In this document: positions 16,594 through 26,726 of the stretch, piece after piece
Layout: the number at the start of each line of letters is the position of its first letter
Numbering within the stretch: position 1 is the first letter of the stretch
From: Escherichia phage 04922B
Sequence record: OP331230.1
DNA length: 39,427 nt
Reading direction: 5' to 3' (one strand)
Program-made: the position numbers and the translations under genes
Notes under the pieces: generated by a model
Databases searched by the model: none
Seen by the model: only the letters and a program-made list of their open reading frames with translations
Told to the model about the DNA's origin: nothing

Positions 16594-16616
16594 TAATACG
16601 ACTCACTATAGGGAGA
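16594..16616 (+). promoter_or_regulatory. T7-RNAP promoter phiOR
   Basis: taatacgactcactatagggaga upstream of gene 19.5. Confidence 0.92.
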
Positions 16617-16772
16617 GGAGGGACGAAAGGTTACTATATAGATACTGAATGAATACTTATAGAGTGCATAAAGTATGCATAATGGTGTACCTAAAGTGAC
16701 CTCTAAGAATGGTGATTATATTGTTATTAATATCACCTCTAACTTAAAGACCAACATAAAGGGAGGAGACTC

Positions 16773-16922
16773 ATGTTCCGCTTATTGTTGAACTTACTGC
16801 GGCATAGAGTCACCTACCGATTTCTTGTGGTACTTTGTGCTGCCCTTGGGTACGCATCTCTTACTGGAGACCTCAGTTCACTGGAGTCTGCCGTTTGCTC
16901 TTTACTCACTTGTAGCGATTAA
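16773..16922 (+). CDS. 19.5: gp19.5, small protein of unknown function
   Basis: 49-aa ORF MFRLLLNLLRHRVTYRFLVVLCAALGYASLTGDLSSLESAVCSLLTCSD, recognised as T7 gp19.5; below the 60-aa cutoff of the ORF track. Confidence 0.85.
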   Translation: MFRLLLNLLRHRVTYRFLVVLCAALGYASLTGDLSSLESAVCSLLTCSD

Positions 16923-17161
16923 GGTCTTCCTGACAGACTGATGGCTCACCGAGGGATTCAGCGGTATGATTGCATCACACCACTTCATCCCTATAGAGTC
17001 AAGTCCTAAGGTATACCCATAAAGAGCCTCTAATGGTCTATCCTAAGGTCTATACCTAAAGATAGACCATCCTATCAGTGCCACCTAAAGAGGGTCTCAG
17101 AGAGGGCCTAAGGAGTCCCTAGAGGGTCCTTTAAAATATACCATAAAAATCTGAGTGACTA

Positions 17162-17309
17162 TCTCACAGTGTACGGACCTAAAGTTCCCCCCATAGGGGT
17201 ACCTAAAGCCCAGCCAATCACCTAAAGTCAACCTTCGGTTGACCTTGAGGGTTCCCTAGGGTTGGGGTTGGGTCATTGGGTTTACCTTTGAGTGTCTCTC
17301 TGTGTCCCT
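17162..17309. repeat. Terminal repeat of the mature linear genome, single copy (concatemer-junction form)
   Basis: tctcacagtgtacggacctaaag...gagtgtctctctgtgtccct matches the T7 terminal-repeat start and end; exact boundaries are approximate. Confidence 0.75.
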
Positions 17310-17460
17310 ATCTGTTACAGCCTCCTAAAGTCACCTCCTAAAGTCATTCCTACCGTCTACAACCTAAAGACTACACTTAAAGACCCATTCAGTCAATCCC
17401 TATCTTAAAGATAATCCTAAAGACCATACCTAAAGACCATACCTAAAGATGCCTTGTTGT
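17310..17460. repeat. Left-end array of short cctaaag-type direct repeats
   Basis: Repeated cctaaag, cttaaag and acctaaagaccat units visible by eye, as at the T7 left end. Confidence 0.7.
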
Positions 17461-17494
17461 TACCTATAAAGAGATTATCTTTAATCATTGTCTT

Positions 17495-17517
17495 TAATAC
17501 AACTCACTATAAGGAGA
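17495..17517 (+). promoter_or_regulatory. T7-RNAP promoter phiOL (left-end variant)
   Basis: taatacaactcactataaggaga, the phiOL-type variant of the consensus. Confidence 0.85.
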
Positions 17518-17566
17518 CTACTTAAAGGCCTTAAAGAGATTAATCAAAATAATTTAAAAAAGAGTA

Positions 17567-17595
17567 TTGACTTAAAGAGTCCTACAGATTATTAT
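17567..17595 (+). promoter_or_regulatory. Host sigma70 early promoter A1
   Basis: -35 TTGACT, 17-bp spacer, -10 TATTAT. Confidence 0.8.
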
Positions 17596-17693
17596 TCATC
17601 TCGTCAACGGGACAACGGCCTAAAGCCACTCCCTGAGATACCGGGGTCAACCGGATAAGTAGACAGCCTGATAAGTCATATGAAAAACAGGCA

Positions 17694-17723
17694 TTGACAA
17701 CACGCAGTAACATGCAGTAAGAT
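17694..17723 (+). promoter_or_regulatory. Host sigma70 early promoter A2
   Basis: -35 TTGACA, 18-bp spacer, -10 TAAGAT. Confidence 0.8.
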
Positions 17724-17798
17724 GCACAGCGTCAACCGGACGAACGGTGTCTTCTAGGTGACTTAAGCGCACCACGGCACACAAGGTGAAACAAACGG

Positions 17799-17827
17799 TT
17801 GACAACATGCAGTAAACACGGTACGAT
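17799..17827 (+). promoter_or_regulatory. Host sigma70 early promoter A3
   Basis: -35 TTGACA, 17-bp spacer, -10 TACGAT. Confidence 0.8.
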
Positions 17828-17945
17828 GTACCACAAGCATTAAGGGTGTAGGGATAGGAACCGAGAAACCTGCCCGTGACCCGCCAAGGATAAGGCACTA
17901 GCCATGAGTCGAATTCGGTCACTCATCGCATAAAAGAATAACAGG

Positions 17946-17974
17946 TTGACAGCCTCCTTTAAAAGCTGTAAGAT
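17946..17974 (+). promoter_or_regulatory. Additional sigma70 promoter-like element (fourth A-type promoter)
   Basis: -35 TTGACA, 17-bp spacer, -10 TAAGAT, inside a segment I do not recall in T7 between A3 and gene 0.3. Confidence 0.6.
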
Positions 17975-18176
17975 GTACCACAGAAAGACACCGAGTGTCG
18001 TAGGTGTAAAAACGCGACATAGTGGATAGATGCCGAAAGCACAAGCGACCACGATAATAAAGAGCTTGTCGGATATATAACGCAAGTGACGGCTAACACT
18101 GAAACAGCCTCGGCTCGATGAAACTGTAGCTTAAAGTTCTTTAACAATCTGGTAAACGGCTCTTGAGTGTACACAC

Positions 18177-18228
18177 GTAGCGGATAACTCAAGGGTATCG
18201 CAAGGTGCCCTTTATGATATTCACTACT
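18177..18228 (+). promoter_or_regulatory. RNase III processing site R0.3
   Basis: agcggataactcaagggtatcgcaaggtgccctttatgatattcac, the conserved hairpin upstream of gene 0.3. Confidence 0.8.
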
Positions 18229-18253
18229 AACCACACACATGAGGTAACACAAG

Positions 18254-18601
18254 ATGGCTATGTCTAACATGACTTATAACAACGTTTTCGACCACGCTTA
18301 CGAAATGCTGAAAGAAAACATCCGTTATGATGACATCCGTGACACTGATGACCTGCACGATGCAGTACACATGGCAGCCGATAGCGCCGTTCCGCACTAT
18401 TACAGCGACATTTTCAGCGTAATGGCAAGCGAGGGCATTGACCTTGAGTTCGAAGACTCTGGCCTGATGCCGGACACCAAGGACGTAATCCGTATCCTGC
18501 AAGCGCGTATCTATGAGCAACTCACGATTGACCTCTGGGAAGACGCTGAGGACTTGCTGAACGAGTACCTTGAGGAAGTCGAAGAAGAGGATGAAGAGTA
18601 A
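18254..18601 (+). CDS. 0.3: Ocr, DNA-mimic inhibitor of type I restriction-modification (gp0.3)
   Basis: 115-aa acidic protein [36 protein letters not shown]...EEVEEEDEE, recognised as T7 Ocr. Confidence 0.95.
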
Positions 18602-18753
18602 TGGCTAACAACGTGCAATATGGTCTGACCGCTCAAACTGTGCTGTTCTATAGCGACATGGTGCGCTGTGGCTTTAACTGGTCGCTCGCAATGGAACACC
18701 TTAAGGAACTGTACGAAAACAACAAGGCAATAGCCTTGGAGTCTGCTGAGTGA
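18601..18753 (+). CDS. 0.4: gp0.4, FtsZ inhibitor
   Basis: 50-aa [53 protein letters not shown], recognised as T7 gp0.4; TAATG overlap with 0.3. Confidence 0.88.
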   Translation: MANNVQYGLTAQTVLFYSDMVRCGFNWSLAMEHLKELYENNKAIALESAE

Positions 18754-18796
18754 TAGGCTCAAGGTCGCTCGATATGAGTGGCCTTTATGATTATCA
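18753..18796 (+). promoter_or_regulatory. RNase III-like hairpin, upstream copy of a duplicated site
   Basis: ctcaaggtcgctcgatatgagtggcctttatgattatcac, nearly identical to the site at 19070-19114. Confidence 0.7.
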
Positions 18797-18821
18797 CTTA
18801 ACACGCTATAGGACTAATATC

Positions 18822-19022
18822 ATGAGTAAACTTCTGGCAACATCTAAAATCAAAGGCCAACACACTGTAACTCTGCGTAAGTACGAGCACGGGAAAATGG
18901 GGAGCACTTACGTTGTTAGGTACGGTAAACAGGTCACACACTGGATGAACGAGGTTTTGGCACAGGAGGAATATCAAGCCTGTGTGCTACACCAAGCAAC
19001 ATGTGCAGGCTGGAATGATTGA
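18822..19022 (+). CDS. Inserted 66-aa early ORF, hypothetical, not in T7
   Basis: MSKLLATSKIKGQHTVTLRKYEHGKMGSTYVVRYGKQVTHWMNEVLAQEEYQACVLHQATCAGWND; lies between two RNase III hairpins in the host-takeover gene block; RBS is weak (agga 9 nt upstream). Confidence 0.5.
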   Translation: MSKLLATSKIKGQHTVTLRKYEHGKMGSTYVVRYGKQVTHWMNEVLAQEEYQACVLHQATCAGWND

Positions 19023-19069
19023 TACCGCGATTTGCAATCACTGGACAACAACCTTTTAGTCTACCCAGT

Positions 19070-19114
19070 GATAAACTCAAGGTCGCTCCTAGCGAGTGGC
19101 CTTTATGATTATCA
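19070..19114 (+). promoter_or_regulatory. RNase III processing site R0.5
   Basis: ctcaaggtcgctcctagcgagtggcctttatgattatcac, matching the T7 R0.5 sequence. Confidence 0.8.
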
Positions 19115-19137
19115 CTTTACTTACTGGAGTAATGTAT

Positions 19138-19266
19138 ATGCTTACTATCGGTCTGCTCACCGCTCTGGGTCTAGCTGTAGGCGCATCCTTTGGGAAGTCC
19201 TTAGGCGTAGCTGTAGGCGCTTACTTGGTCGCTTGTATCATTACGGGAGCACTGCGCAAATGCTGA
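19138..19266 (+). CDS. 0.5: gp0.5, small membrane protein
   Basis: 42-aa hydrophobic ORF MLTIGLLTALGLAVGASFGKSLGVAVGAYLVACIITGALRKC, recognised as T7 gp0.5. Confidence 0.8.
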   Translation: MLTIGLLTALGLAVGASFGKSLGVAVGAYLVACIITGALRKC

Positions 19267-19421
19267 AACACTACGTTATGCCTATCCACACATCCAACGG
19301 GTCTACAGTATGCACACCTGATGGGTTCGCAATGAAACAGCGAATCGAACGCCTTAAGCGTGAACTACGCATCAACCGCAAGATTAACAAGATAGGTTCC
19401 AGCTATGACAGAACGCACTGA
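19260..19421 (+). CDS. 0.6A: gp0.6A
   Basis: 53-aa ORF MLKHYVMPIHTSNGSTVCTPDGFAMKQRIERLKRELRINRKINKIGSSYDRTH, recognised as T7 gp0.6A. Confidence 0.85.
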   Translation: MLKHYVMPIHTSNGSTVCTPDGFAMKQRIERLKRELRINRKINKIGSSYDRTH

Positions 19422-19623
19422 TGGCTTAAAGAAAGGTTACATGACCAACGGTACACTATACGCTGCAAATAGGCGAATAGTGAGAACTTGGAGAGAGAAC
19501 AACCTTGAACGCCGCAAGGCCCAAGAAAGGGCGGCATGGCATAGGCGAAAGGAAAAGGTTAAAGCCAAGAAACTAGCCGCACTTGAACAAGCACTAGCCA
19601 ATACACTGAACGCTATCTCATAA
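19405..19623 (+). other. 0.6B: Downstream ORF corresponding to the frameshift-dependent distal part of gp0.6B
   Basis: 72-aa ORF in a different frame overlapping the 0.6A end (MTERTDGLKKGYMTNGTLYAANRRIVRTWRENNLERRK...), at the position of the T7 0.6B extension. Confidence 0.5.
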
Positions 19624-19644
19624 CGAACTAAAGGACACACTGAA

Positions 19645-20724
19645 ATGAACATTACCGACATCATGAACGCTATCGACGCAATCAAAGCGCTGCCAATCTG
19701 TGAACTTGACAAACGTCAAGGTATGCTTATCGACCTGCTGGTTGAAATGGTCAACAGCGAAACGTGCGATGGCGAGATAACCGAACTGAATCAGGCACTT
19801 GAGCATCAAGATTGGTGGACTACCTTGAAGTGTCTCACGGCTGACGCAGGGTTCAAGATGCTTGGTAATGGTCACTTCTCGGCTGCTTATAGTCACCCGC
19901 TGCTGCCCAACAGAGTGATTAAGGTGGGCTTTAAGAAAGAGGACTCAGGTGCTGCGTATACCGCATTCTGCCGAATGTATCAGGGTCGCGCCGGTATCCC
20001 TAACGTCTACGATGTACAGCGTCACGCTGGATGCTATACGGTGGTACTTGATGCACTGAATGATTGCGAGCGTTTCGACAACGATGAGCACTATAAATAC
20101 GCTGAGATTGCAAGCGACATCATTGACTACAAATCCAGTGAGCACGATATGTTAACTGGGTGGGATGGCGAGTTCGTCGAGACTTGTAAGCTAATCCGCA
20201 AGTTCTTTGAGGGCATCGCTTCGTTCGACATGCACAGCGGTAACATCATGTTCGGTGCTAATGATGTACCGTACATTACCGACCCTGTGTCATTCTCACA
20301 GAAGAAAGATGGTGGCGCATTCAGTATTGACCCTGAGGAACTCATCAAGGAAGTCGAAGAGGTCGCACACCAGAGAGCAATCGACCGCGCTAAGGAACGT
20401 AAAGCACGTCATGTGGGCCGATTGGAGGCACGCAAAGTAAAACGCCGTAACCGTAAGGCACGTAAAGCACACCAAGAGAAGCACAAGCGAATGGTTGCTG
20501 CGTGGCGTATGGCTGAGCGTCAAGAACGACGTAACCATGAGGTAGCTGTAGACGTACTGGGAAGAACCAATAACGCTATGCTCTGGGTTAACATGTTCGC
20601 TGGGGACTTTAAGGCTCTTGAGGAACGAATTGCGGCGCACTGGTTTCAAGCTGACCGAATGGCTATCGCTAACGGTCTTCCACTCAACATCGACAAGCAA
20701 CTTGACGCAATGCTAATGGGCTGA
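19645..20724 (+). CDS. 0.7: Serine/threonine protein kinase and host transcription shut-off protein (gp0.7)
   Basis: 359-aa [35 protein letters not shown]..., same length as T7 gp0.7 and recognised by sequence. Confidence 0.95.
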
Positions 20725-20775
20725 TAGTCTTATCTTACAGGTCATCTGCGGGTGGCCTGAATAGATACGATTTAC
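20725..20775 (+). promoter_or_regulatory. RNase III site R1 region
   Basis: tagtcttatcttacaggtcatctgcgggtggcctgaatag between 0.7 and gene 1, as in T7. Confidence 0.6.
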
Positions 20776-20794
20776 TAACTGGAAGAGGCACTAA

Positions 20795-23446
20795 ATGAAC
20801 ACGATTAACATCGCTAAGAACGACTTCTCTGACATCGAACTGGCTGCTATTCCGTTCAATACTCTAGCTGACCATTACGGTGAGCGTTTAGCTCGCGAGC
20901 AGTTGGCCCTTGAGCATGAGTCTTACGAAATGGGTGAAGCACGATTCCGCAAGATGTTTGAGCGTCAACTTAAAGCTGGTGAGGTTGCGGATAACGCTGC
21001 CGCTAAGCCTCTCATTACTACCCTGCTCCCTAAGATGATTGCACGCATCAACGACTGGTTTGAGGAAGTGAAAGCTAAGCGCGGCAAACGCCCGACAGCC
21101 TTCCAGTTCCTGCAAGAAATCAAGCCGGAAGCGGTAGCGTACATCACCATTAAGACCACTCTGGCTTGCCTAACCAGTGCAGACAATACAACCGTTCAGG
21201 CTGTAGCAAGCGCAATCGGTCGAGCCATTGAGGATGAGGCTCGCTTCGGTCGCATCCGTGACCTTGAAGCCAAGCACTTCAAGAAAAACGTTGAGGAACA
21301 ACTAAACAAGCGTGTAGGTCACGTCTACAAGAAAGCATTCATGCAGGTTGTCGAAGCGGACATGCTCTCTAAGGGTCTACTGGGTGGCGAGGCGTGGTCT
21401 TCATGGCATAAGGAAGACTCCATTCACGTGGGGGTTCGCTGCATTGAGATGCTCATTGAGTCAACAGGAATGGTTAGCTTGCATCGTCAAAATGCTGGCG
21501 TAGTAGGTCAAGACTCTGAGACTATCGAACTCGCACCGGAATACGCTGAGGCTATCGCTACTCGCGCTGGAGCACTAGCTGGCATTTCCCCAATGTTCCA
21601 GCCTTGCGTAGTCCCTCCTAAGCCTTGGACTGGTATTACTGGTGGTGGCTATTGGGCTAACGGTCGCCGTCCTCTGGCGCTGGTACGCACTCATAGTAAG
21701 AAAGCACTGATGCGCTACGAAGATGTTTACATGCCTGAGGTGTACAAAGCGATTAACATTGCGCAAAACACCGCATGGAAAATCAACAAGAAAGTCCTAG
21801 CGGTCGCAAACGTAATCACCAAGTGGAAGCACTGCCCTGTAGAGGACATCCCAGCGATTGAACGTGAAGAACTCCCGATGAAACCGGAAGACATCGACAC
21901 GAATCCTGAGGCTCTCACCGCATGGAAACGTGCCGCTGCCGCTGTGTACCGTAAAGACAAGGCTCGCAAGTCTCGCCGTATCAGCCTTGAGTTCATGCTT
22001 GAGCAAGCCAACAAGTTCGCTAACCATAAGGCCATCTGGTTCCCTTACAACATGGACTGGCGCGGTCGTGTTTACGCTGTGTCAATGTTCAACCCGCAAG
22101 GTAACGATATGACCAAGGGTCTGCTGACGCTGGCGAAAGGTAAACCAATCGGTAAGGAAGGTTACTACTGGTTGAAAATCCACGGTGCAAACTGTGCTGG
22201 TGTCGATAAGGTTCCGTTCCCTGAGCGCATCAAGTTCATTGAGGACAACCACGAGAACATCATGGCTTGCGCTAAGTCTCCACTGGAGAACACTTGGTGG
22301 GCTGAGCAAGATTCTCCGTTCTGCTTCCTTGCGTTCTGCTTTGAGTACGCTGGGGTACAACACCACGGCCTTAGCTACAACTGCTCTCTTCCGCTGGCGT
22401 TCGATGGGTCTTGCTCTGGTATTCAGCACTTCTCCGCGATGCTCCTTGATGAGATAGGTGGTCGTGCGGTTAACCTGCTGCCTAGTGAAACCGTTCAGGA
22501 CATCTACGGGATTGTCGCTAAGAAAGTAAATGTGATTCTGCAAGCAGATGTAATCAACGGGACCGACAACGAAGTAGTTACCGTGACAGATGAGAACACT
22601 GGTGAAATCTCTGAGAAAGTCAAGCTGGGCACTAAGGCGCTGGCTGGTCAATGGCTGGCTTACGGTGTTACTCGCAGCGTGACTAAGCGTTCAGTCATGA
22701 CGCTGGCTTACGGGTCCAAAGAGTTCGGCTTCCGTCAACAAGTGCTGGAAGATACCATTCAACCAGCTATTGATTCCGGTAAAGGTCTGATGTTTACTCA
22801 ACCGAATCAGGCTGCTGGGTACATGGCTAAACTGATTTGGGAAGCTGTGAGCGTCACGGTGGTGGCTGCGGTTGAAGCAATGAACTGGCTTAAGTCTGCT
22901 GCTAAGCTGCTGGCTGCTCAGGTCAAAGATAAGAAGACTGGAGAGATTCTTCGCAAGCGTTGCGCTGTGCATTGGGTAACTCCTGATGGGTTCCCTGTGT
23001 GGCAGGAATACAAGAAGCCAATTCAAACTCGCTTGAACCTGATGTTCCTCGGTCAGTTCCGCTTACAGCCAACCATTAACACTAACAAGGATAGTGAGAT
23101 TGATGCACACAAACAGGAGTCCGGTATTGCTCCTAACTTTGTACACAGCCAAGATGGTAGCCACCTGCGTAAGACTGTGGTGTGGGCGCATGAGAAGTAC
23201 GGAATCGAATCATTTGCGTTGATTCACGACTCCTTCGGGACAATTCCTGCTGATGCTGCCAACTTGTTCAAAGCTGTGCGTGAAACTATGGTCGACACCT
23301 ATGAGTCTTGTGATGTACTGGCTGACTTCTATGACCAGTTCGCCGACCAGTTACACGAGTCTCAATTGGATAAAATGCCAGCACTTCCTGCTAAGGGTAA
23401 CTTGAATCTCCAAGACATCCTTAAGTCAGACTTCGCGTTCGCGTAA
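20795..23446 (+). CDS. 1: T7-type single-subunit DNA-dependent RNA polymerase (gp1)
   Basis: 883-aa ORF MNTINIAKNDFSDIELAAIPFNTLADHYGERLAREQ... with DGSCSGIQHFSA and HDSFGT motifs; near-identical to T7 RNAP. Confidence 0.98.
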   Translation: MNTINIAKNDFSDIELAAIPFNTLADHYGERLAREQLALEHESYEMGEARFRKMFERQLKAGEVADNAAAKPLITTLLPKMIARINDWFEEVKAKRGKRPTAFQFLQEIKPEAVAYITIKTTLACLTSADNTTVQAVASAIGRAIEDEARFGRIRDLEAKHFKKNVEEQLNKRVGHVYKKAFMQVVEADMLSKGLLGGEAWSSWHKEDSIHVGVRCIEMLIESTGMVSLHRQNAGVVGQDSETIELAPEYAEAIATRAGALAGISPMFQPCVVPPKPWTGITGGGYWANGRRPLALVRTHSKKALMRYEDVYMPEVYKAINIAQNTAWKINKKVLAVANVITKWKHCPVEDIPAIEREELPMKPEDIDTNPEALTAWKRAAAAVYRKDKARKSRRISLEFMLEQANKFANHKAIWFPYNMDWRGRVYAVSMFNPQGNDMTKGLLTLAKGKPIGKEGYYWLKIHGANCAGVDKVPFPERIKFIEDNHENIMACAKSPLENTWWAEQDSPFCFLAFCFEYAGVQHHGLSYNCSLPLAFDGSCSGIQHFSAMLLDEIGGRAVNLLPSETVQDIYGIVAKKVNVILQADVINGTDNEVVTVTDENTGEISEKVKLGTKALAGQWLAYGVTRSVTKRSVMTLAYGSKEFGFRQQVLEDTIQPAIDSGKGLMFTQPNQAAGYMAKLIWEAVSVTVVAAVEAMNWLKSAAKLLAAQVKDKKTGEILRKRCAVHWVTPDGFPVWQEYKKPIQTRLNLMFLGQFRLQPTINTNKDSEIDAHKQESGIAPNFVHSQDGSHLRKTVVWAHEKYGIESFALIHDSFGTIPADAANLFKAVRETMVDTYESCDVLADFYDQFADQLHESQLDKMPALPAKGNLNLQDILKSDFAFA

Positions 23447-23454
23447 CGTCAAAT

Positions 23455-23477
23455 TAATACGACTCACTATAGAGGGA
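23455..23477 (+). promoter_or_regulatory. T7-RNAP promoter phi1.1A
   Basis: taatacgactcactatagaggga. Confidence 0.9.
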
Positions 23478-23518
23478 CAAACTCAAGGTCATTCGCAAGA
23501 GTGGCCTTTATGATTGAC
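23477..23518 (+). promoter_or_regulatory. RNase III site R1.1
   Basis: aactcaaggtcattcgcaagagtggcctttatgatt hairpin. Confidence 0.75.
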
Positions 23519-23529
23519 CTTCTTCCGGT

Positions 23530-23552
23530 TAATACGACTCACTATAGGAGAA
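23530..23552 (+). promoter_or_regulatory. T7-RNAP promoter phi1.1B
   Basis: taatacgactcactataggagaa. Confidence 0.9.
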
Positions 23553-23630
23553 CCTTAAGGTTTAACTTTAAGACCCTTAAGTATTAATTAAAGATTTAAA
23601 TTAAAGAATTACTAAGAGAGGACTTTAAGT
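23553..23630 (+). other. AT-rich region after phi1.1A/B; putative primary origin of replication
   Basis: ttaaggtttaactttaagacccttaagtattaattaaagatttaaattaaagaatt; the position corresponds to the T7 primary origin (established for T7, inferred here). Confidence 0.6.
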
Positions 23631-23759
23631 ATGCGTAACTTCGAAAAGATGACCAAACGTTCTAACCATAACGCTCATGACTTCGAGGCAACCAAGGGTC
23701 GCAAGCTGAATAAGACCAAGCGCGACCGCTCGCATAAACGTAGCTGGGAGGGTCAGTAA
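23631..23759 (+). CDS. 1.1: gp1.1, small basic protein
   Basis: 42-aa ORF MRNFEKMTKRSNHNAHDFEATKGRKLNKTKRDRSHKRSWEGQ, recognised as T7 gp1.1. Confidence 0.85.
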   Translation: MRNFEKMTKRSNHNAHDFEATKGRKLNKTKRDRSHKRSWEGQ

Positions 23760-23760
23760 G

Positions 23761-24018
23761 ATGGGCCGTTTATACAGTGGGAATCTGAATGACTTCAAGG
23801 CTGCAACAAATAAGCTGTTTGAGTTGGACCTTGCGGTGATACATGACGACTGGTACGATGCTTACAAACGCCTTTCGTGTATACGTCTACGTGTAGAGGA
23901 CAGGGCTGGAAATCTGATTGATACCAATACGTTCTGTCACCACGATGAAGACGTCTTGTACAATACGTGTACTGACTGGCTGAACCGTATGTACGACCAG
24001 TTGAAGGACTGGAAGTAA
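23761..24018 (+). CDS. 1.2: gp1.2, inhibitor of host dGTPase
   Basis: 85-aa ORF MGRLYSGNLNDFKAATNKLFELDLAVIHDDWYDAYKRLSC..., recognised as T7 gp1.2. Confidence 0.92.
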   Translation: MGRLYSGNLNDFKAATNKLFELDLAVIHDDWYDAYKRLSCIRLRVEDRAGNLIDTNTFCHHDEDVLYNTCTDWLNRMYDQLKDWK

Positions 24019-24038
24019 TACGACTCAGTATAGGGACA
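24016..24038 (+). promoter_or_regulatory. T7-RNAP promoter phi1.3
   Basis: taatacgactcagtatagggaca, the phi1.3-type variant. Confidence 0.88.
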
Positions 24039-24075
24039 ATGCTTAAGGTCGCTCATTGAGTGGCCTTAGTCATTT
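24037..24075 (+). promoter_or_regulatory. RNase III site R1.3
   Basis: gcttaaggtcgctcattgagtggccttagtcatt hairpin. Confidence 0.75.
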
Positions 24076-24096
24076 AACCAATAGGAGATAAACATT

Positions 24097-25179
24097 ATGA
24101 TGAACATTAAGACCAACCCATTCAAAGCCGTGTCTTTCGTAGAGTCTGCCATTAAGAAAGCTCTGGATAACGCTGGGTATCTTATTGCTGACATTAAGTA
24201 CGATGGTGTGCGTGGTAACATCTGCGTAGACAATACCGCTAACTGCTGCTGGCTCTCTCGTGTATCCAAACCGATTCCGGCACTGTCTTACCTTAATGGG
24301 TTCGACGCACGTTGGCAGCGTCTACTAAAGGATGACCGTTGCTTCTACCCTGATGGCTTCATGCTGGATTGCGAACTTATGGTCAAGGGAGTGGACTTCA
24401 ACACTGGCTCCGGCCTTCTGCGGACCAAGTGGCTCAACAAGAAGAACATGCAGTTCGATATTGGCGGTCCGTATGAATCGTGGGACGTGAGCCTGAAAGG
24501 ACTTCCTTTCGGTATTGACCCGAACTTACTAACAGTTAAACTCTACGCTATCCTTCCGTACCACATTGTGGAATCTGGGGAAGACTGTGATGTCATGACG
24601 TTGCTCATGCAGGAACACGTTAAGAACATGCTGCCTCTGCTACAGGAATACTTTCCCGAAATCGAATGGCAAGCTGCTGAGTCTTACGAGGTTTACGACA
24701 TGGTAGAACTACAGCAACTGTACGAGAAGAAGCGTGAAGAAGGGCATGAGGGTCTCATTGTGAAAGACCCTATGGGAATCTACAAGCGAGGTAAGAAGTC
24801 CGGCTGGTGGAAAATGAAGCCTGAGAACGAGGCTGACGGTATTATCCAAGGTCTTGTATGGGGTACTCAAGGTCTGGCTAACGAAGGTAAAGTGATTGGC
24901 TTTGAGGTGCTTCTTGAGAGTGGTCGCGTAGTAAACGCCACAAACATCTCTCGCGCCTTAATGGACGAGTTCACAGCCGTGGTAAAAGAGGCCACCTTGA
25001 AACAGTGGGGATTCTTTAGCCCGTATGGTATTGGTGACAACGATGCTTGCACCTTAAATCCCTACAATGGATGGGCCTGCCAGATTAGCTACATGGAGGA
25101 AACACCAGACGGCTCTCTGCGCCACCCATCATTCGTAATGTTCCGTGGCACCGAGGACAACCCTCAAGAGAAAATGTAA
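24097..25179 (+). CDS. 1.3: ATP-dependent DNA ligase (gp1.3)
   Basis: 360-aa ORF with KxDG adenylation motif IKYDGVRG; matches T7 ligase with a divergent internal segment (about aa 115-160). Confidence 0.95.
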   Translation: MMNIKTNPFKAVSFVESAIKKALDNAGYLIADIKYDGVRGNICVDNTANCCWLSRVSKPIPALSYLNGFDARWQRLLKDDRCFYPDGFMLDCELMVKGVDFNTGSGLLRTKWLNKKNMQFDIGGPYESWDVSLKGLPFGIDPNLLTVKLYAILPYHIVESGEDCDVMTLLMQEHVKNMLPLLQEYFPEIEWQAAESYEVYDMVELQQLYEKKREEGHEGLIVKDPMGIYKRGKKSGWWKMKPENEADGIIQGLVWGTQGLANEGKVIGFEVLLESGRVVNATNISRALMDEFTAVVKEATLKQWGFFSPYGIGDNDACTLNPYNGWACQISYMEETPDGSLRHPSFVMFRGTEDNPQEKM

Positions 25180-25182
25180 TCA

Positions 25183-25216
25183 CACTGGCTCACCTTCGGG
25201 TGGGCCTTTATGCGTT
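25183..25216 (+). terminator. Early terminator TE for host RNA polymerase
   Basis: ggctcaccttcgggtgggcctttatgcgttt: GC hairpin with ttcg loop and T-rich tail, matching T7 TE. Confidence 0.85.
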
Positions 25217-25232
25217 TATAAGGAGACACTTT

Positions 25233-25388
25233 ATGTTGAAGAAGGTCGGTAAGTTCCTTGCAGCTTGGGCAGCTATCCTGACGTTTGCATATCTTCTGGC
25301 GGTATATCCTCAAGTAGCACTCGTAGTAGTTGGTGCGTGTTGCCTAGCGGCAGCGTGCGCTTGCGTGTGGTGCTTCGTCAATTGCTAA
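25233..25388 (+). CDS. 1.4: gp1.4, small membrane protein
   Basis: MLKKVGKFLAAWAAILTFAYLLAVYPQVALVVVGACCLAAACACVWCFVNC, recognised as T7 gp1.4. Confidence 0.85.
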   Translation: MLKKVGKFLAAWAAILTFAYLLAVYPQVALVVVGACCLAAACACVWCFVNC

Positions 25389-25408
25389 TACGACTCACTA
25401 AAGGAGGT
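25386..25408 (+). promoter_or_regulatory. T7-RNAP promoter phi1.5
   Basis: taatacgactcactaaaggaggt. Confidence 0.9.
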
Positions 25409-25415
25409 ACACATC

Positions 25416-25505
25416 ATGATGTACTTAATGCCATTACTCATTGTCATCATAGGATGCCTTGCGCTCCACTGTAGCGATGACGATATGCCAGATGGCCATG
25501 CTTAA
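25416..25505 (+). CDS. 1.5: gp1.5
   Basis: 29-aa ORF MMYLMPLLIVIIGCLALHCSDDDMPDGHA, recognised as T7 gp1.5. Confidence 0.8.
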   Translation: MMYLMPLLIVIIGCLALHCSDDDMPDGHA

Positions 25506-25525
25506 TACGACTCACTAAAGGAGAC
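25503..25525 (+). promoter_or_regulatory. T7-RNAP promoter phi1.6
   Basis: taatacgactcactaaaggagac. Confidence 0.9.
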
Positions 25526-25530
25526 ACTAT

Positions 25531-25791
25531 ATGTTTCGACTTCATTACAACAAAAGCATTAAGAATTTCACGGTTCGCCGTGCTGACCGTTCAATCGTAT
25601 GTGCGAGCGAGCGCCGAGCTAAGTTACCTCTTATTGGTAACACAGTTCCTTTGGCACCGAGCGTCCACATCATTATCACTCGTGGTGACTTCGAGAAAGC
25701 AATAGACAAGAAACGTCCGGTTCTTAGCGTGGCAGTGACCCGCTTCCCGTTCGTCCGTCTGTTACTCAAACGAATCAAGGAGGTGTTCTGA
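25531..25791 (+). CDS. 1.6: gp1.6
   Basis: 86-aa [34 protein letters not shown]..., recognised as T7 gp1.6. Confidence 0.92.
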
Positions 25792-26333
25792 TGTCTGGTT
25801 GCATAGCTTGCTTAGAGAAAGACGACCGTTATCCACACACCTGTAATAAAGGAGCTAACAACATGACTGAACGTGAACAAGAAATGATCATGAAGCTGGT
25901 AGACAACAACGAAGGTCGCCCAGATGATTTGACTGGCTGCGCGGTTCTCTGCTCTAATGTTCCCTACCACCTCTGCCCAGCAAATAATGATCAGAAGATA
26001 ACCTTAGGTGAAATACGAGCGATGGACCCACGTAAGTCTAAGTCGGATAAACCAGAGGTAACTCCGACAGATGACCAGTCTTCCGCTGAGTCAATCGAAG
26101 GTATCACTAAGCCATCCCATTACATGCTGTTCGACGACATTGAGGCTATCGAAGTGATTGCCCGTTCGATGACCCGTGAGCAGTTCAAGGGGTACTGCTT
26201 AGGGAACATCCTTAAGTATCGCCTACGTGCTGGTAAGAAATCCGAACTGGCTTACTTAGAGAAGGACATGGCGAAAGCTGGGTTCTATGGTGAACTGTAC
26301 GAGAAACATAAGGATAAGTGCTATGACGCTTAA
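25791..26333 (+). CDS. 1.7: Nucleoside monophosphate kinase (gp1.7), N-terminally shortened relative to T7
   Basis: 180-aa [35 protein letters not shown]...; matches T7 gp1.7 but lacks about 16 N-terminal residues. Confidence 0.92.
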   Translation: MSGCIACLEKDDRYPHTCNKGANNMTEREQEMIMKLVDNNEGRPDDLTGCAVLCSNVPYHLCPANNDQKITLGEIRAMDPRKSKSDKPEVTPTDDQSSAESIEGITKPSHYMLFDDIEAIEVIARSMTREQFKGYCLGNILKYRLRAGKKSELAYLEKDMAKAGFYGELYEKHKDKCYDA

Positions 26334-26413
26334 CGATGTTCTGTACTTCGGATTAATTTGCGCTGGAGTGGGAGCGTTACTTCGCTTAATGTATTGGGCC
26401 ATAGAGGTGGAAT

Positions 26414-26433
<20 letters not shown>
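26323..26433 (+). CDS. Small hydrophobic ORF (36 aa) at the position where T7 gene 1.8 starts
   Basis: MTLNDVLYFGLICAGVGALLRLMYWAIEVEYGKAK; ATG overlaps the end of 1.7 exactly as the 1.8 start does in T7, but the sequence is unrelated and TM-like. Confidence 0.4.

Positions 26434-26726
<293 letters not shown>

Follow-up and report, generated by a model that had tools for sequence, protein, structure and literature searches.

Gene 0.45 and its two RNase III-type hairpins in the early region of a T7-like Escherichia phage

Between genes 0.4 and 0.5, Escherichia phage 04922B (OP331230.1) carries a small open reading frame (ORF) with a hairpin on each side, which raises the question of what this segment is, how its ORF would be expressed and what the encoded protein might do for the phage. 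In T7 (NC_001604), as the original prediction stated, a single hairpin of this kind separates 0.4 from 0.5 and the ORF is missing, whereas there are two hairpins in the window, by which we mean the whole stretch of 39,427 nucleotides that was analysed. The window is a circularly permuted T7-like phage genome (Teseptimavirus), and its closest records over 16600-26600 are phages C5 and N30, with 95-96% nucleotide identity. The ORF at 18822-19022 translates exactly into the 66-residue sequence first reported for it. The 0.45 cassette is placed between Ocr/0.4 and 0.5/0.6/0.7/RNA polymerase, and the features of the locus are as follows.

18254-18601: Ocr (gene 0.3)
18601..18753, + strand: gene 0.4 (50 aa), upstream neighbour (ORF list; PHROG 7202, E 1.8e-33)
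18747..18800, + strand: hairpin A (fold; homology to T7 R0.5 / R0.45)
18810..18813, + strand: AGGA Shine-Dalgarno of gene 0.45 (sequence; 8 nt before the ATG)
18822..19022, + strand: gene 0.45, 66 aa, 7.6 kDa, pI 9.0 (ATG to TGA; PHROG 6500)
19023..19066, + strand: spacer between 0.45 and hairpin B (75-nt direct repeat D1; pairwise alignment)
19067..19116, + strand: hairpin B, second copy of the RNase III site (fold; homology)
19132..19266, + strand: gene 0.5, small membrane protein, downstream neighbour (ORF list; PHROG 16572, E 5e-28)
19260-19623: 0.6A/B
19645-20724: 0.7 kinase
20795-23446: gene 1, RNA polymerase

As judged from homology, the ORF is gene 0.45, a gene long annotated in the T7/T3 group whose function is uncharacterised, and the window holds a new copy of this known gene, which has been annotated since the phiYeO3-12 genome. 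Residues 1-66 of the product align with profile positions 1-66 of 66 in PHROG 6500 (unknown function) at E 1.3e-42, and the protein is 83-95% identical to annotated gp0.45 proteins. A tblastn search found matches to 0.45 in 163 phage records, 160 of them over the full length and mostly at 80-95% identity, and the carriers infect Klebsiella, Escherichia, Yersinia, Salmonella, Citrobacter and Shigella. The original prediction regarded the ORF as an extra insertion, but the insertion is neither unusual nor new, given this number of records, the annotated 0.45 of phiYeO3-12 and phiSG-JL2 and the layout of phage CICC 80001. The ORF is therefore annotated in reference T7-group genomes, but the annotation comes without a function. 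T3 has no gene 0.45. In the literature search, the sole match for 'gp0.45' was an annotation table (PMC4925675), and queries with 'gene 0.45' and with the peptide sequence gave no match; the phiYeO3-12 genome and non-essential-gene papers lay outside this search. The same search returned no report of cleavage, expression or phenotype for 0.45, and the Sxt1 and BASEL papers do not mention the gene.

We compared the locus to its annotated relatives. Yersinia phage phiYeO3-12 and Salmonella phage phiSG-JL2 (both Teetrevirus), like the window, carry a 66-aa 0.45 (83-85% identical) downstream of gene 0.3, and the same hairpin precedes it, annotated as RNase III site R0.45. The phiSG-JL2 record reads 'gp0.45', preceded by 'putative RNaseIII site R0.45', and phiYeO3-12 is annotated likewise. 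Unlike in the window, the upstream gene in these two phages is a SAM hydrolase and gene 0.4 is absent, and phiSG-JL2 lacks a second hairpin after 0.45. Escherichia phage CICC 80001 (Teseptimavirus; RefSeq NC_027387; gp09-gp11) has the same order as the window, namely Ocr, 0.4, hairpin A, 0.45, hairpin B and 0.5, and several other phages also share this exact double-hairpin layout. However, the cassettes of CICC 80001 and the window show only 85% nucleotide and 89% amino-acid identity, and the window flanks are nearer to the cassette-less N30 and C5 than to CICC 80001. Gene 0.4 of the window aligns with gene 0.4 of both N30 and CICC 80001. The ATAGGACTAA motif at the Shine-Dalgarno of 0.45 is also kept in CICC 80001 and phiSG-JL2, and many T7-like and T3-like phages conserve the spacer at 19023..19066 along with 0.45. 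The segment is quite probably a T7/T3-group cassette of gene 0.45, comprising an accessory class I gene and its own R0.5-type hairpin.

A small ORF that several GenBank records leave unannotated might not be a gene at all, and a double hairpin might be an artefact of assembly or duplication. The dN/dS ratio of 0.45 across 10 distinct alleles is 0.11 (mean dN 0.050, mean dS 0.46), and 0.45 is a real protein-coding gene under purifying selection. When 1.84 billion representative proteins were scanned exhaustively with HMMER, only about a dozen further relatives were added, with 63-89 residues and 33-68% identity. Homologues at 39-48% identity retain the length and the motifs, those of about 40% identity are found in unrelated phages, and the residues conserved in the family are L18, Y34, G35, A47, H57, C61 and A62. 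The full-length copies come from independent genomes, and the same double hairpin is present in independently sequenced phages. Because of these conservation data, the reading of the locus as a non-gene or an artefact is already refuted, and we regard it as having next to no chance of being right. Two long proteins from the HMMER scan with many matched stretches, P0019 (755 aa) and P0021 (847 aa), were rejected as homologues of 0.45, being low-complexity repeat proteins with spurious matches.

We next consider the hairpins on either side of the gene. The folding energies are -25.7 kcal/mol (z -4.9) for hairpin A and -22.1 kcal/mol (z -5.0) for hairpin B, and for neither did any of 200 shuffled sequences fold as well. 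In each hairpin, 10 pairs make up the upper stem and 8-10 pairs the lower one, with an internal loop between them. The stems of A and B are identical, and the 3' arm is the same over 24 nt, whereas the terminal and internal loops differ; gene 0.4 ends with its stop codon inside the lower stem of A. A search of the 39-kb window with a 40-nt pattern whose 5-nt loop was left free gave exactly two matches (18758 and 19076), against a shuffled expectation of 0.00, and a 75-nt direct repeat of 80% identity joins 18728-18802 with 19046-19120 at a start-to-start distance of 318 bp. The folds, the pattern and the repeat thus bear out the claim of two near-identical hairpins around the ORF. The coordinates first proposed for them were otherwise correct but slightly narrower than the full lower stems.

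The relatives of the hairpins place them in a known class. Hairpin A matches the one hairpin of N30 at 100% identity, and for hairpin B of the window the identity is 100% to hairpin B of CICC 80001 and 98% to T7 R0.5. T7 R0.5 and hairpin B have the same structure of two stems and an internal loop, and both stand in the same place upstream of gene 0.5. The consensus of 27 distinct copies from related phages consists of two stems separated by an internal loop of 4 x 5, and compensatory changes occur in 12 of its 19 pairs. The conserved GGCCUUUAUGAUUA 3' arm and the asymmetric internal loop between the stems are present in both hairpins. Both belong to the covarying family of T7 RNase III sites, for which Rfam holds no family. 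No T-run follows either hairpin on the + strand, so they are not intrinsic terminators.

The direct repeat is not limited to the hairpins, and about 20 nt of it fall in the 3'-terminal part of gene 0.4. Because it extends 5' of the hairpin, the spacer after 0.45 holds what looks like a decayed copy of the 0.4 end, which is seen when 18728-18746 is compared to 19046-19064, TGA included. This alignment hints that the duplicated unit may originally have been the end of 0.4 together with the hairpin.

These hairpins suggest how 0.45 would be expressed. The original prediction placed the gene in the early class I region, and 0.45 does lie there, between hairpins that match T7 R0.5 at 98-100%; the class I location, 3' of gene 0.3 and 5' of 0.6/0.7, is shared by the window and at least 15 related loci. 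Four sigma-70 consensus promoters lie upstream of the cassette, with the A promoters at 17567-17974. The host RNA polymerase would start at these A promoters and read through the region, and RNase III would cut each hairpin on the 3' side of the internal loop. Dunn and Studier (1983) are reported to have established cleavage at this side of the loop in T7, and homology to the T7 cleavage site predicts cuts in the window near 18788/18789 (A) and 19106/19107 (B). A 0.3-0.4 mRNA would end at the hairpin A cut, where the 0.45 mRNA would begin, and the hairpin B cut would in turn separate the 3' end of the 0.45 mRNA from the start of a 0.5-0.7 mRNA. The released product would be a monocistronic 0.45 mRNA of about 318 nt, with hairpin B kept at its 3' end as a possible barrier to exonucleases. 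Because 0.45 has a class I location between hairpins so close to T7 R0.5, separate processing of its transcript is very likely on homology grounds, and the earlier description of an independently processed early gene is well supported in this respect.

Several further observations concern the early region around the cassette. The fourth strong sigma-70 promoter (17946-17974; TTGACA, 17 nt, TAAGAT) lies 147 bp 3' of the A3-like promoter, and the region containing it (17937-17982) is 74% identical to the A3 region (17790-17835). This extra A-type promoter is present in CICC 80001 and EG1 and absent from N30, T7 and EFA-2; because only some relatives have it, the early leader is also mosaic. Further upstream, 17324-17451 contains a cluster of short CCTAAAGAC-type direct repeats, which lie a short way inward of the left genome end, placed near 17162 by alignment to C5, and resemble the repeat arrays beside the T7 terminal repeat. 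On the other side of the cassette, 0.6A (19260-19421) and an overlapping ORF at 19405-19623 match the first and second halves of a single PHROG (8393), and such a split match is expected for a T7-style 0.6A/0.6B translational frameshift.

We also analysed the protein itself. The absence of a recognisable domain, as noted originally, holds for Pfam and NCBIfam, neither of which gave a match for gp0.45, and searches of Pfam, NCBIfam and PHROGs with the query and 26 relatives returned no family of known function. The best hit of a sequence-profile search against the PDB had E 0.38 (RsfS) and is not meaningful. The AlphaFold2 model of gp0.45, built on an 18-sequence alignment, has a pLDDT of 90.8 and a pTM of 0.75, and it predicts strands at residues 2-8, 16-22, 28-34 and 37-41 followed by a helix at 44-61. 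Foldseek found nothing below E 1.6 in the PDB, while in BFVD it found many small uncharacterised phage proteins with TM 0.7-0.85, including proteins of Bordetella phage BB8, Pseudomonas phage VCM and the large phages RaK2 and PBECO4. Because the BFVD matches are only small phage proteins, we take the modelled fold to be a widespread small domain restricted to phages, with no characterised member among the matches. The homology and structure searches suggested at the outset thus gave PHROG 6500 and a confident model, but no characterised relative.

On the model, the conserved residues map to a single helix face and to the beta3-beta4 turn, and they look structural rather than catalytic. Two candidate motifs were rejected. 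The first is a likeness of the YG...A...GW pattern to the WGR domain; no Pfam match at E <= 1 was obtained in 18 members, and no PARP WGR is among the fold matches. The second is a zinc site formed by C54, H57 and C61 with residue 14; this position may hold H, C or Y, and some members have S or I in place of C54.

Gp0.45 most probably would bind a host protein stoichiometrically early in infection, and it may serve host takeover or counter-defence as a dispensable factor, its value varying with the host strain. We infer host-protein binding from the size of gp0.45, its predicted early expression, the lack of a catalytic motif, its patchy distribution and its neighbourhood, and also from the conserved residues, which look structural, and the mildly basic rather than acidic character of the protein.

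As to the target, it is possible, and we propose it only tentatively, that gp0.45 inhibits a bacterial anti-phage defence system. The original prediction saw here a strong candidate for an anti-defence or host-modulating protein, an idea that is reasonable but was guessed from the position of the gene. In every arrangement seen, 0.45 comes immediately after an anti-restriction gene (Ocr or SAMase), and its distribution is patchy, with 163 records carrying it compared to 706 that match the surrounding region. In addition, the distant relatives on long enough contigs lie within arrays of small early ORFs; one has a phage RNA polymerase downstream and an Acb2/Tad1-hairpin gene nearby, and another is close to a Lar restriction-alleviation gene. 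However, PHROGs, Pfam, NCBIfam, PDB sequence, PDB fold and BFVD searches show no similarity of gp0.45 to a characterised inhibitor, and the 0.45 sequence is absent from the supplements of the accessory-gene screen of Silas et al. Gp0.45 is also no DNA mimic, since the acidic surface of such a protein is absent: its pI is 9.0 and its charge +2.8, compared to a pI of 4.05 and a charge of -27 for the Ocr of the window.

The same region also houses inhibitors of host physiology. T7 0.4 targets FtsZ and T7 0.6 targets MreB, and because the neighbours include such inhibitors, position does not separate anti-defence from takeover. A takeover factor acting on host growth or division, transcription or metabolism, like T7 gp0.4, gp0.6 and gp2, is a somewhat unlikely identity for gp0.45. 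The gene lies in the same class I cluster as these small inhibitors and the protein falls within their size range, and the compact single-domain fold that is predicted would suit protein binding, but the Foldseek search of the PDB listed none of gp0.4, gp0.6 and gp2.

We consider it improbable that gp0.45 is instead a nucleic-acid binding protein, such as a PUR/PC4/Whirly-like unit or a dsRNA-binding protein, acting on early RNA or DNA of the phage. The predicted topology of four strands and a helix is the same as that of a PUR repeat, the window allele is mildly basic, and Pur-alpha (3nm7) and several dsRBDs are among the weak Foldseek matches. However, these matches all have E > 4, TM <= 0.45 and probability <= 0.2, there is no Pfam match, and other alleles are near neutral, such as the gp0.45 of phage SH1 with a pI of 6.8 (PMC4925675).

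The distribution of the hairpin among T7-like and T3-like phages shows how the cassette behaves. The nearest relatives, N30 and C5, have one hairpin and no 0.45 ORF; on either side of the cassette, the window shares 96-98% identity with N30, which is without the 318-bp unit. The junction between the two lies inside the hairpin, with the cassette ending exactly at the hairpin repeat, and the cassette has at most 91-92% nucleotide identity to any copy in the phage collection. The hairpin was found at 185 places in 153 records, so that about 30 records have two or three copies. The arrangements between and around these copies (hp, hairpin) include the following.

Window and CICC 80001: 0.45 alone between the hairpin copies
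EG1: 0.4-hp-94aa-hp-0.45-hp-0.5
EFA-2: 0.4-hp-0.45-hp-94aa-hp-0.5
P694: SAMase-hp-Ocr-0.4-hp-0.45
HZ2R8: hp-0.45-hp-HNH, with an HNH endonuclease after the second hairpin
A7: Ocr-hp-SAMase-hp

The 94-aa ORFs of EG1 and EFA-2 are identical at 90 of 95 positions, and their order relative to 0.45 is swapped. In the Klebsiella Przondovirus phages, 0.45 directly adjoins the SAMase gene and this hairpin is absent, so the hairpin is not obligatory to 0.45. Loop type was considered as a sign of independent deletion in T7 and N30 and was rejected, because double-hairpin phages mix loop types; for the same reason, the loops do not distinguish gain in this lineage from loss in N30 and C5.

Three R0.5-type hairpins surround two cassettes in EG1 (locus L004, 1596-2277) and in EFA-2 (locus L056, 1533-2217), and in P694 (locus L005, 1373-2701) and A7 (locus L058, 1075-1946) the SAM hydrolase and Ocr are adjacent cassettes separated by a hairpin. 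The record of 'Enterococcus phage EFA-2' (MT350293) is a typical enterobacterial T7-like Studiervirinae genome with Ocr, 0.4, 0.45, 0.5 and 0.7, and its host label, Enterococcus faecalis, is probably wrong, or the phage is a contaminant. In Vibrio cholerae, the palindromes of T7 RNase III sites are reported to be triggers of the DdmABC (Lamassu) defence (PMC11707656). Each extra hairpin cassette adds a potential DdmABC trigger at the DNA level, which would be a possible cost of its carriage.

In the simplest reading, the hairpin repeats of 50-75 bp would provide homology for recombination that adds, removes and reorders early cassettes. With little confidence, we propose that the R0.5-type hairpin could be the recombination joint of such an array and that gp0.45, with its predicted phage-only fold of four strands plus a helix, could be one of the shuffled counter-defence or host-range factors.

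As gene discovery, this copy of 0.45 adds little, since the gene and its layout are already in reference genomes. It represents, however, a conserved and strongly selected early protein carried by about a quarter of the sequenced Studiervirinae records, and the fold of gp0.45 recurs in many unrelated phages. The natural presence/absence pairs, formed by the window phage and N30 or C5 with flanks 96-98% identical, ease a clean genetic test. The recurring hairpin-gene-hairpin pattern offers a testable account of how early host-takeover genes are swapped in T7-like phages, and of all the findings at this locus, the cassette-array pattern most deserves further work.

The arrangements suggest a hairpin-bounded cassette array in the early region that may be compared to the PeSL (promoter-early stem-loop) elements, the mobile regulatory cassettes of T4-type phages (PMC2839356, PMC4122927). 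The PeSL repeat consists of a promoter and a terminator, whereas the repeat of the 0.45 array is an RNA-processing hairpin and is restricted to a single short part of a 39-kb podovirus genome, with no promoter-like site or + strand terminator in or beside the hairpins. Because no promoter or terminator is involved, the 0.45 array is analogous to PeSL and not the same element. The likeness lies in three properties: in both systems, small early ORFs of unknown function are bordered by a conserved regulatory repeat, close relatives differ by indels that end at the repeats, and the cassettes occur in varied orders and combinations.
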